From the IMG/VR virus record IMGVR_UViG_643348551_000006, positions 1-48,119 of that record: DNA of 48,119 nucleotides. The stretch is one strand, 5' to 3'. Both the position numbers and the translations under genes were made by a program. The notes beneath the pieces were generated by a model. It saw nothing but the letters and a program-made list of their open reading frames with translations. It did no database searches and was not told the origin of the DNA. Position 1 is the first letter of the stretch, and each line of letters opens with the position of its first letter. This DNA comes from a virus. Lineage: Duplodnaviria > Heunggongvirae > Uroviricota > Caudoviricetes. Positions 2,203 to 34,641 of this stretch are shown here, one piece after another.

Positions 2203-3975
2203 CTAATAAACCCGGATAAATAGACCAATCATGATGCCATCAGAACCCGCACTCCCCAGCCGTGAGCCCGACAACGCCCGGTATGTCCCCGAAAACGCAC
2301 CGCCTGCATACACAGAAATATCGCTGGTTTGTTGAATCGCGGGGTAGTCTGTTATCCCGACACACTTAAACTCAATAATCATAAGACGTGAGCCGGGATA
2401 CAGGTCACCACGATTTATCTGACGATTTGAATCTGAGCTGTAAGTTCCCTTGTACCCCGCCAGTACAAGACTGCCAATACCGTATCCGTCATATGTCGTT
2501 CCGGGGGTAATCCCGGACAGCGTAGCGACAACGGACGACGGCGTGTATTTCAGGGATTCCCACTCCATCAGTTTGCCAGTGGGCGAGTACCAATTCACAT
2601 GAACGCCACCATTAACACCGTAGAAAATAATATTTTTAGGTTGTTTTTCTGCTTCACCACTGGTATCGGCACTCGTCCAGATGACGTCCACAACACCAAT
2701 AAATAGTTCCCCCTCTATTACGACCCCGTTTTCCGGCCTCGTACTCACGGCATAACGTCCGGGGAGAGCGTTTTTTGCCCACGAGAGGAACATTGACCCT
2801 GACTGAAAATACACTCTGTCTTTGACAGTAAATATTTTCCCGAATCCGGACATGCCGGGGACAGCAAGACGACCGTCTGTGCAGTCGTAAATATCTGCCT
2901 GTGGTTCCATCGTGGCCGCGCTTTTTAGCCCCAGATTATCACGTGACTCCTGTTGTGCTTGTTCACCTGCTGCCGCAATCTCTGACAGATTACCGGACGT
3001 TTTCAGGGTGTTCGCCAGCAGGACATCAATGTCGTTTTTTGCCTGCTCAGCTGCGCGGGCATAACCTGCGGCTACCCGTGCGCTCTGTTCAGATGAGGCC
3101 GCGCTTTCCCCCGCACTTTTCACATCTTCCGCAGTGGCCTTTCTGTCACAGGCTGTGGCCGTTGCATCCTGTCTGGCGTTCTCCGCAAAGCGCTCAGCAT
3201 CATCACGTGCTGCTGCGGTTGCCGTCACATCCTGTGCGGTCTGCAGTGTGTTTCCTGCAACATTATCGGCGTGACTTTTCGCGTTTTGCGCACTTCGGGC
3301 TGCATTATCAGCGTGACTTTTTGCGCTCTGTTCGCTTCGGGCAGCGTTATCCGCATTGTTTTTTGATTCCTCTGCGCTGGATGCAGAATCATCTGCTGCC
3401 TGTTGAGCCTGCTTTACTGCATCTGTAACACTCTGCACACCCTGTTGCATCTGTCCAGCATTCTGCTCAACTTCTGCAGCCAGATGTTCAACGTGTTGTT
3501 TATCTTCGGCAACCGCGGTGGCGTTCAGCTGTACGTTATCCGCCAGCGTCTGACAGTCTTCCTTTATCTTCTGCGCATCAGCGACATGTTGCCCGGCCTG
3601 TTGTTCGCTTTCCGCTGCGGATTCGGCGCTCTGCTGCGCCTGTGCCACCATTCTCTCAAAGCGTTTCACCACGTCGGGTTTGAGGTCGCCTTCATCGGGA
3701 GCGGTCAGAAAGTCGTTCAGCGTGCCGGGCTTTGCGTCATCGTATACAGCAATGTCGCCAACACAGTACTCGTCGCGCCAGCCCTGTTTCAGATACACGC
3801 GATATTTTCCGGTCCGGGCCTCAAACGAATACTCCCCGTTATTTCCGGTCACCACATCAGCTTCAGTGCGCATCACCACTTCTGATGTGTTCACCCGGGA
3901 TTTCAGAATAATGTGGCATCCGGACATGGGGATGCCTGCGCCATCAGTCAGCGCACCATAAATTAAAACGGACAT
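2203..3975 (-). CDS. stf: Side tail fibre protein (Stf-like); start placed at internal Met MSVLIYGALTDG
   Basis: N-terminus MSVLIYGALTDGAG...GTLNDFL shared with the upstream fibre and with lambda Stf; repeated ADNAARSxQxAKSH units; C-terminal receptor-binding region of the kind that needs Tfa. Confidence 0.85.
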   Translation of the reverse strand: MSVLIYGALTDGAGIPMSGCHIILKSRVNTSEVVMRTEADVVTGNNGEYSFEARTGKYRVYLKQGWRDEYCVGDIAVYDDAKPGTLNDFLTAPDEGDLKPDVVKRFERMVAQAQQSAESAAESEQQAGQHVADAQKIKEDCQTLADNVQLNATAVAEDKQHVEHLAAEVEQNAGQMQQGVQSVTDAVKQAQQAADDSASSAEESKNNADNAARSEQSAKSHADNAARSAQNAKSHADNVAGNTLQTAQDVTATAAARDDAERFAENARQDATATACDRKATAEDVKSAGESAASSEQSARVAAGYARAAEQAKNDIDVLLANTLKTSGNLSEIAAAGEQAQQESRDNLGLKSAATMEPQADIYDCTDGRLAVPGMSGFGKIFTVKDRVYFQSGSMFLSWAKNALPGRYAVSTRPENGVVIEGELFIGVVDVIWTSADTSGEAEKQPKNIIFYGVNGGVHVNWYSPTGKLMEWESLKYTPSSVVATLSGITPGTTYDGYGIGSLVLAGYKGTYSSDSNRQINRGDLYPGSRLMIIEFKCVGITDYPAIQQTSDISVYAGGAFSGTYRALSGSRLGSAGSDGIMIGLFIRVY

Positions 3976-28260: not shown

Positions 28261-28647
28261 TCAGCGTTTCAACTGAAAGTGAGGCCCGTCTTTCAGTGTT
28301 TTCCAGTCCCCACCCCATTCGATGGCAGTTCCCAGCTCTGCGGCAGCCTGCTTAAATGCCTGCGCGATTTTCTCGTACAGAGGCCAGTCCCATGACACCT
28401 GGCTGCCAATGTAGGCCACAACATCCACCGCATCACCTGTAAGGTGGCGGCTGTTCATGGTCTGGCTTTTCCCTGCCGCTACCAGCTGTTTCTGGCGATA
28501 CTTACTGCGCAGACCTTCCGTGATACCAAAATCAACCTCCGTCAGCTCCAGCGCACGGCGAACGACAGCAACCAGCTGTGGTTTGACGCCCTCCAGATTT
28601 TTTTCACTGCGACGGCTGAATCTGAATTTACCCGGCATCATATTCAC
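28261..28647 (-). CDS. Endolysin, peptidase M15-type (L-alanyl-D-glutamate / D-Ala-D-Ala peptidase fold)
   Basis: 128 aa with zinc-ligand motifs SRHLTGDAVD ... DGPHFQL characteristic of M15 peptidases; lies downstream of holin-like genes. Confidence 0.85.
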   Translation of the reverse strand: MNMMPGKFRFSRRSEKNLEGVKPQLVAVVRRALELTEVDFGITEGLRSKYRQKQLVAAGKSQTMNSRHLTGDAVDVVAYIGSQVSWDWPLYEKIAQAFKQAAAELGTAIEWGGDWKTLKDGPHFQLKR

Positions 28648-28919
28648 CTCAACAATGGAAAGATTTTTGTGACGTTCCCGCGTGCGCGTATCACCAGCAC
28701 GCAGAACAGCAGGTTAAAAAACACTTCCAGCCAGCCCGTTGCTAACGGGCGACCACACAGATAGCTGAGGGGCGCAAAGGCATACAGCAGCATCAGCAGC
28801 CAGGCCAGCCATGACATCAGCGGTTTGTGTCTGGAGTCACGACGACGATAAAAAAAGAGCGTCAGCACGATAACCGTGCATAACGCCACATTCAGTAATC
28901 CGGGAAGGTTACTTAACAT
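28644..28919 (-). CDS. Small membrane protein (91 aa, 2-3 TM) between holin and endolysin; possible second holin or antiholin
   Basis: Strongly hydrophobic segments (LLNVALCTVIVLTLFF, WLAWLLMLLYAFAPL, FFNLLFCVLVI); start overlaps the preceding gene's stop. Confidence 0.45.
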   Translation of the reverse strand: MLSNLPGLLNVALCTVIVLTLFFYRRRDSRHKPLMSWLAWLLMLLYAFAPLSYLCGRPLATGWLEVFFNLLFCVLVIRARGNVTKIFPLLR

Positions 28920-29301
28920 TGCCGCCTCCTCCGCCCCGCAGGCGCGAGAACAGGCCGGACACCAGTGATGCGATATCCTGCTGGTGGATGAACGACAGAA
29001 TCTTCACCGACACCACCGCCACCAGCACCGCACACAGTGCATCCGCAGATGTACCGTCATAACCTGTTTTTGATGCAATCCAGGCTGACAGTACACGCGC
29101 CCCCAGTACACCAACAATGAACGACACCAGAAAATGTGCCGCCACACGCCAGGCTGAAATCTTCTGCGGCATCGTTGCCACAAACAACGCCCCGGCGAAC
29201 GCACCAAACACAATCCCGAAATCCGTTCCGGTAAACAGCCCGAATACCGTCGCCCCGCCGAGCGCCGCAGCCGTGCCGGAACCGGATAAGGGTTCAGACA
29301 T
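28909..29301 (-). CDS. Holin-like membrane protein; start at MSEPLSGSG
   Basis: About 130 aa with 3-4 TM segments (GGATVFGLFTGTDFGIVFGAFAGALFVA...) and charged Gly-rich C-terminus; AGGAG RBS 8 nt upstream; first gene of the lysis cassette. Confidence 0.6.
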   Translation of the reverse strand: MSEPLSGSGTAAALGGATVFGLFTGTDFGIVFGAFAGALFVATMPQKISAWRVAAHFLVSFIVGVLGARVLSAWIASKTGYDGTSADALCAVLVAVVSVKILSFIHQQDIASLVSGLFSRLRGGGGGNVK

Positions 29302-29316: not shown

Positions 29317-29341
29317 AATAAAAAAGGGCCACCAACGGCCC
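29317..29341 (-). terminator. Rho-independent terminator immediately upstream of the holin RBS
   Basis: Minus strand GGGCCGTTGGTGGCCC then TTTTTTATTT, then AGGAG and the holin ATG. Confidence 0.5.
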
Positions 29342-29388: not shown

Positions 29389-29541
29389 TTATTCAGATTT
29401 ACGCAGTAAAGGCCGGAGCACGACCAGCGCCATCGCCACCAGCACACCATCTGCCAGCACCGACATCAGCCGTCCGGTGAAATCCACCACCACTACCAGA
29501 AACAGCAGGATGGCAGCCAGCACAAGGCGCGCACTTTTCAC
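29389..29541 (-). CDS. Small hydrophobic ORF (~50 aa, GTG start overlapping the TerB-like stop as GTGA)
   Basis: Hand translation VKSARLVLAAILLFLVVVVDFTGRLMSVLADGVLVAMALVVLRPLLRKSE; below the ORF-track size cutoff; overlap suggests translational coupling. Confidence 0.25.
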   Translation of the reverse strand: MKSARLVLAAILLFLVVVVDFTGRLMSVLADGVLVAMALVVLRPLLRKSE

Positions 29542-29963
29542 AGGTACTGCTCCAGCGGCAACTGCAACGCCTGTGCAATTTTCTTGAGCTGCACTTCTTC
29601 ATCAGGACCGATGCCGTCCTGGTCAGCAATATCCAGACACAGACACAGCACGTTAACTGCATCATCAGTACCGGCAACATCAGCCAGCTGACGAAGGGCT
29701 TCGGCATTGGCAGAACGCGGTGACGCTTCATAACGGGCGCGGATATTTGCACTCATTTGTGCAATCTCACCCGAGAACGGCGCAAAGGCAGGAAGTGCTG
29801 CAATGGTTTTCTCCAGCACAGCGATTTCTTTCGCATCACAGGTGCCGTCGGCGAATGCTATGGAATACGCACCCCAGACGGTCGCCTCCACTGCATCGCG
29901 GTTCTCCATCTTCTTCACTTCGGTAATGGCCTTGCGGGTTTTCTTTTTGAAAATACCAAACAT
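29538..29963 (-). CDS. TerB-like (tellurite-resistance TerB family) protein
   Basis: 141 aa; ...AYSIAFADGTCDAKEIAVLEKTIAALP...NVLCLCLDIADQDGIGPDEEVQLKKIAQALQLP resembles TerB-domain proteins. Assignment by eye, moderate. Confidence 0.6.
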   Translation of the reverse strand: MFGIFKKKTRKAITEVKKMENRDAVEATVWGAYSIAFADGTCDAKEIAVLEKTIAALPAFAPFSGEIAQMSANIRARYEASPRSANAEALRQLADVAGTDDAVNVLCLCLDIADQDGIGPDEEVQLKKIAQALQLPLEQYL

Positions 29964-30221
29964 CGTGACTTTTCCTTTTAGTGGGTGAGCCTGCGCCCGG
30001 GGGTGACCAGCCCACAGAGAAAGTCACACTGACCATCCCGTAAGCTCACCCCTGAAAGGCTCTGTGGTTTTTGATGTGCGCCGGGCGTGGCGCAAAGAAA
30101 TGAAATAAGACTTACCTGAAATTAAGGTTAATCTGAGGATTTAAACCATTTTTAAAGCTTAGTAATATCAACTCGTCTCCTGAAGGAGACAGATACTTAT
30201 GATTCTTCATGGACTTTGTCC

Positions 30222-30628: not shown

Positions 30629-30704
<76 letters not shown>

Positions 30705-31050: not shown

Positions 31051-31452
31051 TTATCGATACAGATAAGCCATCCCTATCCCGTGCAATACCGCCCGTTTAA
31101 TATTCTCAAACTCATCTTCCGCAATCATAGGAACAATATAATTTCGTCCCTCCCAGGTTCTGGTTTTTATGCGATCCAGTCGGCTCAATGAAACCGTCAT
31201 CAACATGTCACATTTTACCCAGCAAGTAATATGCTCATTACCAGGTATGGGGTTTTCTGATAACTCATGATGGCAATCTCTGCGAGGGAGCGGTTCAGTA
31301 GTGCTTATTGGTACCACTGTTACCAATTGATTGTTGTGCCTGTTTCTGGACACGACCACCACTGGCCTGATCTTGACTATTTCCGGAACAACCATTCCCC
31401 GAAAATCACACATTAAAACAGAACGAACAGACGGCTGATACTTTAATACCAT
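31051..31452 (-). CDS. MazF/PemK-family endoribonuclease-like protein (toxin homologue) with no adjacent antitoxin gene; start at MVLKYQPS
   Basis: MVLKYQPSVRSVLMCDFRG...KIRPVVVVS...LVTVVPISTT...CWVKCDMLMTVSLSRLD aligns with MazF (MVSRYVPDMGDLIWVDFDP...HRPAVVLS...) and Kid/PemK (TRPVLIVT...LPVVVPVTSG...VVRCDQPRTID). The track ORF extends 26 codons further upstream. Confidence 0.7.
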   Translation of the reverse strand: MVLKYQPSVRSVLMCDFRGMVVPEIVKIRPVVVVSRNRHNNQLVTVVPISTTEPLPRRDCHHELSENPIPGNEHITCWVKCDMLMTVSLSRLDRIKTRTWEGRNYIVPMIAEDEFENIKRAVLHGIGMAYLYR

Positions 31453-31552
31453 AAATCTCTTTGCCTGATAATGACGACTTGTGAACTCCACTACAAACAA
31501 AATGATTCTGCTGAACAGGCAGTTTCGCACTATACATTATAACCTGTTAAGC

Positions 31553-31585
31553 CAACAAAAAAACCCGCTCGGCGGCGGGATTTGC
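31553..31585 (-). terminator. tR'-like rho-independent terminator about 65 nt downstream of the putative Q stop
   Basis: Minus strand CCCGCCGCCGAGCGGG followed by TTTTTTTG. Confidence 0.5.
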
Positions 31586-31632
31586 TTACTTTGCCATCGA
31601 GTACAAAATCGGCAAAATATCAGATTTGCACG

Positions 31633-31661
31633 AAATATATGCCTTTTAATCTACTTTTGCA
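31633..31661 (-). promoter_or_regulatory. PR'-like late promoter candidate overlapping the 3' end of the putative Q gene (TTGCAA - 17 nt - TATATT)
   Basis: Good sigma70 hexamers with 17-nt spacer; with the terminator it would give a ~70-nt leader RNA, analogous to lambda PR'-6S-tR'. Confidence 0.4.
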
Positions 31662-32341
31662 ACACTTTGCTTTGAAAATGCCGTCTTTTGTTCTGAACGT
31701 GTTCTCATCACAAACAATAAAGCCTCACTATCCAGCCGGTGGAAAATGTGTTTCATTGCAACCCAGTGACCAGTAAATGTTTTGGACCAGTTTTTAGTTG
31801 TCACTCCCGCCAGTAATGCCAGTTCCTGATATTCATAAGTTTCACGCCCAGCTAGCTCACTCTTCACATCCTGTGCCGCCAGCCAGATTAATTTTTTCAG
31901 GCGCTCCCGTGTTTTCTCCGCAATTTTTCTGGTACCAGATTGCGCGTTAAATTCATTCCACGCCCACTGTGTTATCGCAATCTGGTGTTCCCAGCAAATG
32001 CTGCCGCTGTAACACCACAGCAACCAGGCTTTATGGTGTTCTTCAAGAGACAGAACCGCCCGTCGCCATGATGATGTCGAAAACTCAACCTGACTTACCA
32101 GAGGAATTGACGTCTTCTTTGCCAGCGATTGTTTCCCCGGGATTGGTGGATTATCCAGCGTGATCATTTTTCCGGTCACTTCATCGCGGTACCGGATTTT
32201 TTTACGCCTGTAACGCCCGGTATCAAACATGGCATTCTCCTGCCAGGCTTCAAGCTGACCTTTTGTTGCTCCACTCAAATCGGCGGTGGCGATAATGAGC
32301 TGTTCACGCACAAACTGTAAATACTGGTTATTCATGCGCAC
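31646..32341 (-). CDS. Putative late-gene antiterminator Q (assigned by position between rusA and the PR'/tR'-like elements)
   Basis: 231 aa; no motif recognised by eye. Call rests on the conserved lambdoid order rusA - Q - PR' - lysis. Confidence 0.45.
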   Translation of the reverse strand: MRMNNQYLQFVREQLIIATADLSGATKGQLEAWQENAMFDTGRYRRKKIRYRDEVTGKMITLDNPPIPGKQSLAKKTSIPLVSQVEFSTSSWRRAVLSLEEHHKAWLLWCYSGSICWEHQIAITQWAWNEFNAQSGTRKIAEKTRERLKKLIWLAAQDVKSELAGRETYEYQELALLAGVTTKNWSKTFTGHWVAMKHIFHRLDSEALLFVMRTRSEQKTAFSKQSVAKVD

Positions 32342-34196: not shown

Positions 34197-34352
34197 TTAC
34201 TTCTCAGATTCGTAGTCTACGAAGACAGCAACCTCCGTCTGGCCGGTTCGGATTCGTACCTCGCAGAGGTCTTTCCTCGTTACCAGTGCCGTCACTATGA
34301 CGGTTAAACAGATGACGATCAGGGCGATTAACATCGCCTTTTGCTGCTTCAT
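34197..34352 (-). CDS. hokD: Hok/Gef-family type I toxin (51 aa)
   Basis: MKQQKAMLIALIVICLTVIVTALVTRKDLCEVRIRTGQTEVAVF..., near-identical to E. coli HokD/HokC; in-frame upstream extension to 34409 resembles a mok-type leader. Confidence 0.8.
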   Translation of the reverse strand: MKQQKAMLIALIVICLTVIVTALVTRKDLCEVRIRTGQTEVAVFVDYESEK

Positions 34353-34480
34353 AGCCTGCTTCTCCTTGCCTTTCGGCACGTAAGAGGCTAACCTGATGTT
34401 GTCATGCATAGGGAGCCTCAGATTAATGTTAAGCGTCTTGCAGGACGCGTAATGTTAACTGGGGCTTTTCTCTATCTGCC
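34353..34480 (-). promoter_or_regulatory. hok leader region (expected mok start, Sok antisense RNA target, fold-back structure)
   Basis: Inverted repeat TCTATCTGCC...GGCAGATAGCC in the 5' leader. By analogy with hok/sok loci; Sok promoter not pinpointed. Confidence 0.35.
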
Positions 34481-34641
34481 TTTTGGTGTTCATGCCTGAG
34501 GCAGATAGCCTCAAGCACCCGCAGCAATTCTACTTAACTCTCCTTTTCCCGCAAACCGTTTTTATCCCCAGCGGCAAATCGAATACACCACCAGCGCCAC
34601 CGCCATCGCAATTCCTACCGTTGTGAATGCTTCAGGCCAGG

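Follow-up and report, generated by a model that had tools for sequence, protein, structure and literature searches.

The closest described relative of the locus analysed here is the tciA-tciB-tciC gene set of phage P1 (NC_005856, gp074-076). The origin of these gene names was taken from the GenBank notes on P1, and the names were given by homology. CRISPRi experiments indicated that tciA, tciB and tciC are non-essential genes of P1 (PMC10695390), and the transcripts of all three change during lytic infection with P1vir (preprint 10.64898/2025.12.28.696737). A second reference system is TerB of the terZABCDE operons. According to reports cited in 10.1101/2022.05.11.491447 and PMC12054061, this protein associates with the membrane and forms a core complex with the membrane protein TerC. 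Resistance to phages and colicins has been reported for ter operons (PMC8123226; PMC12054061), and in Klebsiella, terC has a share in phage resistance (PMC12054061). TerB domains are also present in the Shango and Bunzi defence systems, for which a function in membrane surveillance has been proposed (10.1101/2022.05.11.491447). Finally, the sRNAs PasA and PasC of EPEC prophages are reported to lie near TerB genes and holins (PMC8550237).

The window, i.e. the whole stretch of 48,119 nucleotides analysed here (IMG/VR record IMGVR_UViG_643348551_000006), is a lambdoid E. coli prophage. It carries a tciA-tciB module in a cargo slot that is flanked by the gene for the late antiterminator Q and a tRNA remnant on one side and by the lysis genes on the other. 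From the sequence and the ORF list it can be seen that all parts lie on the minus strand in the order tciA, tciB, two 3' hairpins and then the holin gene. The module and its flanks comprise the following features:

29538-29963, minus strand: tciA, a 141-aa ORF with ATG start, predicted cytoplasmic TerB-fold protein
29389-29541, minus strand: tciB, a 50-aa ORF with GTG start, predicted two-helix inner-membrane peptide (DUF3927)
29550-29553, minus strand: tciB Shine-Dalgarno sequence GGAG within the 3' end of tciA, 8 nt 5' of the GTG (direct reading)
29971-29979, minus strand: tciA Shine-Dalgarno region AAAAGGAAA, with AAGGA 8-9 nt 5' of the ATG (direct reading)
29961-30073, minus strand: conserved tciA leader of about 112 nt, candidate structured cis-acting RNA that ends at the tciA ATG
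30078-30093, minus strand: hairpin GCGCC-ACGCCC-GGCGC at the 5' edge of the leader (alignment and RNAalifold), in lambdoid versions, absent in jumbo-phage versions
29342-29390, minus strand: first 3' hairpin, core AAAGGCATCTGCGGGTGCCTTT plus an extended stem, followed by UUUUUAU (fold)
29320-29341, minus strand: second intrinsic terminator GGGCC-GTTGGT-GGCCC plus TTTTTT (terminator scan and fold); the scan placed GGGCCGTTGGTGGCCC plus a T-run at 29341-29326

The initial annotation had described a 141-aa TerB-like ORF overlapping a GTG that opens a hydrophobic ORF of about 50 aa, and a terminator of the module's own before the holin ribosome-binding site. All of these elements were recovered, and the module ends in two tandem terminator-like hairpins. 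The tciA stop codon TGA (29540-29538) overlaps the tciB start codon GTG (29541-29539), the junction of four shared bases being GTGA. The two genes are evidently read from one mRNA, on which the start codon of tciB shares bases with the stop codon of tciA. Judged by its sequence, the pair is the tciA-tciB module first named in phage P1, which is already annotated and not new. The observation is a correct rediscovery of a pair that is covered by P1 tciA/tciB, by the Pfam families TerB and DUF3927, by PHROG 632 and 1470 and by RefSeq. A 100% identical copy is found in the E. coli chromosome EC21Z-048, where RefSeq names the products 'tellurite resistance TerB family protein' and 'DUF3927 family protein'. 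When complete E. coli genomes were searched, the module region was matched in 554 of 5,426 (about one in ten) and the whole module was present in 164.

P1 and the window share the gene order, the overlapping start and stop codons and the linkage to tRNA genes. In other respects, the two modules differ. P1 has tciC as third gene, which encodes a 35-aa single-helix peptide, whereas no tciC is present in the window, in which 47 nt of hairpin sequence separate tciB from the pre-holin terminator. In phages LMessi and CharmingMan, tciB is followed by small ORFs that bear no relation to TciC. The conserved leader that precedes tciA in the window is missing from P1, and the tciA-tciB junction of P1 reads TGATG instead of GTGA. 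In P1, the C1-controlled ban promoter lies upstream of the module, whereas the module of the window appears to be part of a Q-dependent late operon.

TciA of the window shares 85% identity with P1 TciA, and both proteins consist of 141 aa. It passes the Pfam TerB model PF05099 (28.7 bits vs. a cutoff of 24.4), the aligned part covering residues 11-57 only, but it matches PHROG 632 ('tellurite resistance') over its full length (E=4e-64). When a profile of 46 TciA family members was compared with the structure of Klebsiella pneumoniae TerB (PDB 2JXU), the alignment also extended over the full length (E=2.8e-27). The AlphaFold model of TciA is a six-helix protein (pLDDT 88.5). Two acidic ADG...E motifs are the most conserved positions of the family, and D39, G40, E46, A113, G117 and E122 are conserved in at least 90% of 76 homologues with identities down to 25%. 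TciA thus resembles TerB of the terZABCDE operons in full-length homology, similar size, all-helical structure and the two ADG...E motifs. Taken together, these data show that TciA is a soluble, all-helical TerB homologue and the TerB assignment is secure. It had been suggested that the protein be searched against the TerB and DjlA-N families, and only the first of these holds. NCBIfam yielded no significant match for TciA; the best one was a weak match to DjlA (E=0.05, 13 bits vs. a cutoff of 162), and membership in the DjlA family was rejected because this match is far under the cutoff. The N-terminal region of DjlA likewise pairs a membrane anchor with a TerB-like domain (a transmembrane helix followed by that domain), but in DjlA both are parts of one polypeptide fused to a J-domain, whereas TciA and TciB are separate proteins.

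The small ORF encodes MKSARLVLAAILLFLVVVVDFTGRLMSVLADGVLVAMALVVLRPLLRKSE, a strongly hydrophobic peptide (GRAVY 1.45) with basic termini. Its hydropathy profile has two peaks (residues ~6-19 and ~25-42), which are separated by a short DFTGR loop. This profile is in line with the two-helix peptide of the initial annotation and is consistent with an N-in/C-in hairpin with two predicted transmembrane helices. TciB matches the Pfam family DUF3927 (PF13064) with 54 bits vs. a cutoff of 25 over residues 4-48 of 50, and PHROG 1470 ('TciB-like') with an E-value of 6.7e-24. Its identity with P1 TciB is 49%. Among some 90 related loci, a TciB-like ORF directly follows tciA almost without exception. It is still there in a locus in which TciA is only 43% identical (L009), and a metagenomic relative with 41% TciA identity retains TciB with the DFT..SDG motifs.

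A short, very hydrophobic frame with a GTG start can arise by chance, and the 50-aa ORF might in principle be such an open frame in the 3' UTR of a TerB gene. The comparative data refute this explanation and we assign it a practically negligible probability. Besides the DUF3927 match, the peptides downstream of tciA keep 40-98% aa identity between loci while synonymous change is saturated, and the motifs DFT, S..L.DG and WP are conserved. The overlap is conserved as well: most loci have GTGA at the junction, P1 has TGATG and one further locus has TAATG. Pairwise dN/dS values of tciB are mostly 0.02-0.6 with saturated dS (1.12 in one close pair), and 29.5 synonymous vs. 8.5 non-synonymous differences were counted between loci L004 and L008. 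Since TciB follows TciA nearly everywhere, with a conserved junction and these dN/dS values, the small ORF is, on comparative grounds, a real gene that is translationally coupled to tciA. Since essentially all of the related loci have a TciB-like ORF directly after tciA and the junction is conserved, the arrangement of the two genes in the genomes compared is not a matter of chance. The initial annotation had named two findings that would speak against its proposal, namely a TciA-type protein of a well-characterized family with known function and a small ORF that is not conserved; the first applies only as far as TciA belongs to a well-known family, and the second does not apply.

The sequence of tciB is mosaic. 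In comparisons with the window (L020, L036, L039, L055, L087, L088), identity can extend over the first ~35 codons although the C-terminal third belongs to one of several different types, and this mosaicism implies that recombination breakpoints lie within tciB, a gene of 150 nt, or at its borders. TciB types do not follow TciA types but are freely recombined with them, which argues against a highly specific interface between the two proteins. A Logan assembly (P0055) contains a 196-aa protein of the P1 type in which TciA reads through into TciB and which carries both PF05099 and PF13064. This fusion is probably the product of a frameshift or an assembly error. Using it as a co-fold of TciA and TciB gave a poor single-sequence AF2 model (pLDDT 63.6), which was uninformative.

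The conserved leader upstream of tciA is a new observation. At the nucleotide level, about 88% identity is retained even where that of TciA has dropped to 43%, and identity in the Erwinia jumbo phages is 72-73%. The AAAGG of the tciA Shine-Dalgarno region is invariant across all leader alignments. The pattern CCTTTCNGGGG...GGCTCACCC was fitted by 204 leader copies. Downstream of them, 80 distinct ORFs with a length of 30 aa or more were collected, of which 78 matched the TciA HMM; the remaining ORFs after leader copies were truncated or frameshifted, and most of them had a TciA-like beginning. In the window, the covariance model of the leader identified a sole copy (136.9 bits). The leader is absent from the P1 and N4-like versions of the module, and an Rfam scan of positions 29961-30095 gave no match, either at the gathering threshold or with the limit relaxed to E<=10.

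RNAalifold modelled the leader as a long imperfect hairpin (GAGCC / UUCAGGGGUG ... CACCCCCGGG / GGCUC) with an additional apical hairpin, and UUCAGGGGUG/CACCCCCGGG forms a 10-bp helix in this model. On the first MAFFT alignment of 27 sequences, covariation was not above that of shuffles. With more divergent sequences and a covariance-model alignment, six pairs were changed on both sides and all five measures exceeded 500 of 500 shuffles, but such an alignment is fitted to the structure and is biased towards it. A crossing helix, CCACAGAG/CUCUGUGG, is replaced by CCGUAGAG/CUCUACGG in all five jumbo-phage sequences, which corresponds to two compensatory changes in one lineage, and this element is possibly a pseudoknot helix. 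An alternative fold that would sequester the Shine-Dalgarno sequence (CCUUU:AAAGG plus GGGUGAGC:GCUCACCC) consists of nearly invariant pairs, and covariation therefore neither supports nor excludes it. A leader peptide was rejected because the ATG in the leader of the window is not conserved in other leader types. Taken together, the comparative data make the leader a candidate cis-acting RNA that might serve translation control or as a processing site, with modest covariation support.

Two further observations concern individual leader copies. In four independent records (L098, which is phage Evi, L117, L169 and L268), the GGGG run of the 5' arm is expanded to 10-12 G. This expansion, which would break the proposed helix, could reflect slipped-strand variation or sequencing error. 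In PPompW_132418 (L226, 3501-4998), the leader breaks off after ~43 nt, at precisely the point where the IS110-family element ISEc20 begins. This leader remnant follows three tRNA genes, terminase genes come after ISEc20, and neither tciAB nor lysis genes are annotated between Q and the terminase in the stretch shown.

The wider context of the module is that of a lambdoid late region. On the minus strand, the order is Q, pR'/tR'-like sites, a MazF/PemK-like gene, a partial tRNA, terminators, the tciAB module, two holin genes, an M15 endolysin gene and packaging genes. The relevant features are:

31646-32341, minus strand: late antiterminator Q (Pfam Phage_antiter_Q, E=7e-95)
31662-31634, minus strand: pR'-like promoter TTGCAA-17-TATATT, overlapping the end of Q (promoter scan)
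31579-31564, minus strand: tR'-like terminator CCCGCCGCCGAGCGGG plus T-run, ~70 nt past the pR'-like promoter (terminator scan)
31051-31530, minus strand: MazF/PemK-like toxin gene (RefSeq annotation), between Q and the tRNA remnant with terminators on both sides
30640-30697: partial tRNA (Rfam 48.5 bits, model positions 8-63; none by ARAGORN)
28909-29301, minus strand: first holin, Phage_holin_8, ATG at 29301 with AGGAG 5' of it (Pfam and PHROG)
28644-28919, minus strand: second holin, Phage_holin_3_7, with an 11-nt overlap with the first holin (Pfam and PHROG)
28261-28647, minus strand: M15 peptidase endolysin (Pfam and PHROG)

The pR'/tR'-like stretch (31556-31662, minus strand) has weak, sub-threshold Rfam similarity to isrK and isrJ, and it probably gives rise to a short Q-utilization transcript. 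For the MazF/PemK-like gene, no obvious antitoxin ORF was noted, and PADLOC and NCBIfam matches were absent or weak. Elsewhere in the window (34347-34520, minus strand), a sok antitoxin RNA (Rfam RF01794, 118 bits) adjoins a gene that is annotated as hokD in the identical RefSeq prophage, which constitutes a hok/sok locus.

Five terminator-like sites were found between Q and the holin. On the minus strand between the terminator at 30361-30343 and tciA (30343-29964), a consensus scan detected no sigma-70 promoter with at least 9 of 12 matches; this was a simple consensus search, which a weak or non-sigma-70 promoter could escape. In most lambdoid relatives, a terminator directly abuts the leader. 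Because there is no detectable promoter of its own and several terminators lie upstream, we infer that tciAB is transcribed mainly by Q-antiterminated late transcription.

The tciAB pair was found in four unrelated kinds of enterobacterial phages, which are lambdoid phages, P1 and P1-like phage-plasmids, Erwinia jumbo phages and N4-like Schitoviridae. The lambdoid carriers come from Escherichia and Klebsiella (JLK-2012, LMessi, CharmingMan, Evi and Klebsiella phages). In P1, the pair is found among tRNA genes, behind the C1-controlled ban promoter; in the Erwinia jumbo phages it lies within a tRNA cluster, and in the N4-like phages FSL SP-058 and Pollock among early/replication genes. In all three of these kinds, it is far from the lysis genes. 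tRNA genes adjoin tciAB in P1 (L001), JLK-2012 (L092) and the Erwinia jumbo phages Asesino (L094) and pEa_SNUABM_6 (L099), and shared processing of one transcript is one possibility to explain this linkage. A record named 'Actinobacillus phage vB_Apl-pPE4' (PP818812.1) is 94% identical to the window over the module and the start of the holin. It looks like an E. coli lambdoid prophage and the stated Actinobacillus host is doubtful.

In the phiP27 stx2e cassette and in the LT-IIb prophage, the pre-holin terminator region is 86-90% identical to that of the window, but the cargo of both consists of toxin genes and not of a TerB gene. In phiP27, stx2e occupies the same slot between Q/tRNA genes and the same holin type. 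Here, a relic of tciB is still present (~3050-3190 of the phiP27 locus L002, corresponding to 29389-29483 of the window), which comprises the 3' two-thirds of the gene from the DFT codon onwards and is frameshifted by a 1-nt deletion. Both terminator hairpins are retained between stxB2e and the holin. The relic and the hairpins imply an ancestor with tciAB in which the stx cassette took the place of tciA and of the 5' part of tciB. The LT-IIb prophage (SerU-LTIIb), in which the toxin genes are downstream of the lysis genes, keeps only the hairpins 5' of the same holin type. The replacement in phiP27 and the remote position of the pair relative to the lysis genes of P1, N4-like and jumbo phages indicate that tciAB is a swappable, mobile cargo outside the canonical lysis cassette. 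These findings bear out the earlier proposal of a self-contained two-gene cargo.

The slot that stx2e fills in phiP27 is a classical moron slot, and the module is bracketed by terminators. With this location, tciAB could be a lysogenic-conversion gene pair that is expressed in the lysogen and confers tellurite or colicin resistance or superinfection exclusion. The P1 and PHROG names, which go back to the homology with TerB of ter operons, and the phage and colicin resistance reported for these operons would agree with such a function. However, no sigma-70-like promoter was found before tciA, and most loci have a terminator immediately 5' of the leader; strictly virulent phages of the N4-like and jumbo kinds carry this pair as well; and the P1 copy is downstream of the C1-controlled ban promoter. 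Moreover, neither the window nor the identical RefSeq prophage has terZ, terA, terC, terD or terE beside the module, so that tciAB, unlike the terZABCDE operon, is a phage-borne pair without other ter genes. We therefore consider lysogenic conversion unlikely. The strictly virulent carriers, the lack of a sigma-70 consensus, the terminator abutting the leader and the repressor-controlled promoter of P1 make it most likely that tciAB acts during lytic growth rather than as a lysogenic-conversion or lysis-cassette gene.

The 81-nt tciB 3' UTR folds at -34.2 kcal/mol (z = -4.95), and none of 200 shuffles was as stable. The first 3' hairpin accompanies tciB into other contexts (e.g. L004 and L008). 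The second terminator, which ends 18 nt before the holin ATG, is retained in phiP27 and SerU-LTIIb 5' of the same holin type. PasA and PasC were considered as candidates for these hairpins and rejected, since the published northern-blot probes (PMC8550237, Table S6) had no match in the window with up to three mismatches and since both sRNAs are transcribed antisense to their neighbours.

According to a lysis-related explanation, TciB would be a small holin, an antiholin or a holin modulator and TciA its regulator. TciB is indeed a small two-helix membrane peptide with charged ends, and the module lies directly upstream of two holin genes in the window and in many lambdoid relatives, where it would be co-transcribed with the late genes. 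TciB, however, matches no holin model in Pfam or PHROG, where its only matches are DUF3927 and PHROG 1470. The same holin type is present in phiP27 and SerU-LTIIb, both of which lack a functional tciAB, and P1 knock-downs plate normally (PMC10695390). The idea is further weakened because the conserved neighbour of tciA is tciB and not the lysis genes, from which the pair is remote in P1, N4-like and jumbo phages, and because two terminators separate the module from the holin. A function as lysis-timing accessory is quite improbable on these grounds. The initial annotation had considered lysis timing or exclusion, and both lose ground with the strictly virulent carriers, the lack of a detectable promoter of its own and the placement behind the P1 ban promoter.

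The reading that we favour, with moderate confidence, is that tciAB is a P1-type accessory module for a membrane-anchored TerB complex, which is transcribed late and serves as a lytic-phase factor for host physiology or membrane stress. Translational coupling would fix the ratio in which TciA and TciB are made. The short basic ends of TciB would both face the cytoplasm, and the peptide would tether or partner TciA at the inner membrane. The TciA-TciB pair would then be a minimal counterpart of the TerB-TerC pair, although TerB of ter operons partners the multi-pass TerC, whereas the proposed membrane partner of TciA is a 50-aa peptide. In the cell, such a complex may be a non-essential factor that buffers ion, metal or envelope stress or blunts a membrane-linked host response. 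We infer both the interaction and its physiological role, and membrane or ion stress is suggested by analogy.

Alternatively, the module may work as a counter-defence decoy, in which a phage TerB mimic held by TciB disturbs host systems with TerB domains (phage inhibition by ter operons, Shango, Bunzi). The spread over four unrelated phage types and the dispensability in a laboratory host form a typical anti-defence pattern, and both the proposed membrane surveyors Shango and Bunzi and the contribution of terC to phage resistance in Klebsiella would provide targets. This case is purely circumstantial, and TciA had no match at E<=1 among the PADLOC defence-protein models, which include the Shango and Bunzi proteins. 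We rate the decoy as improbable. A more far-reaching proposal, which we regard as very doubtful, joins the leader, tciA and tciB into a portable RNA-controlled unit. The leader, as translational switch or RNase processing site, would gate a membrane-anchored TerB mimic, with which lambdoid, P1-like, N4-like and jumbo phages would neutralize TerB-based surveillance (ter-operon inhibition, Shango, Bunzi) during lytic growth.

The hypotheses on the function of the pair are narrowed by three findings. The small peptide is a conserved and, by its junction, coupled partner of TciA, which was recovered in nearly all of the ~90 related loci; the pair most likely serves the lytic phase rather than lysogenic conversion; and a conserved leader that is absent from Rfam often accompanies tciAB. 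The module may thus offer a compact two-gene system for the study of TerB function.
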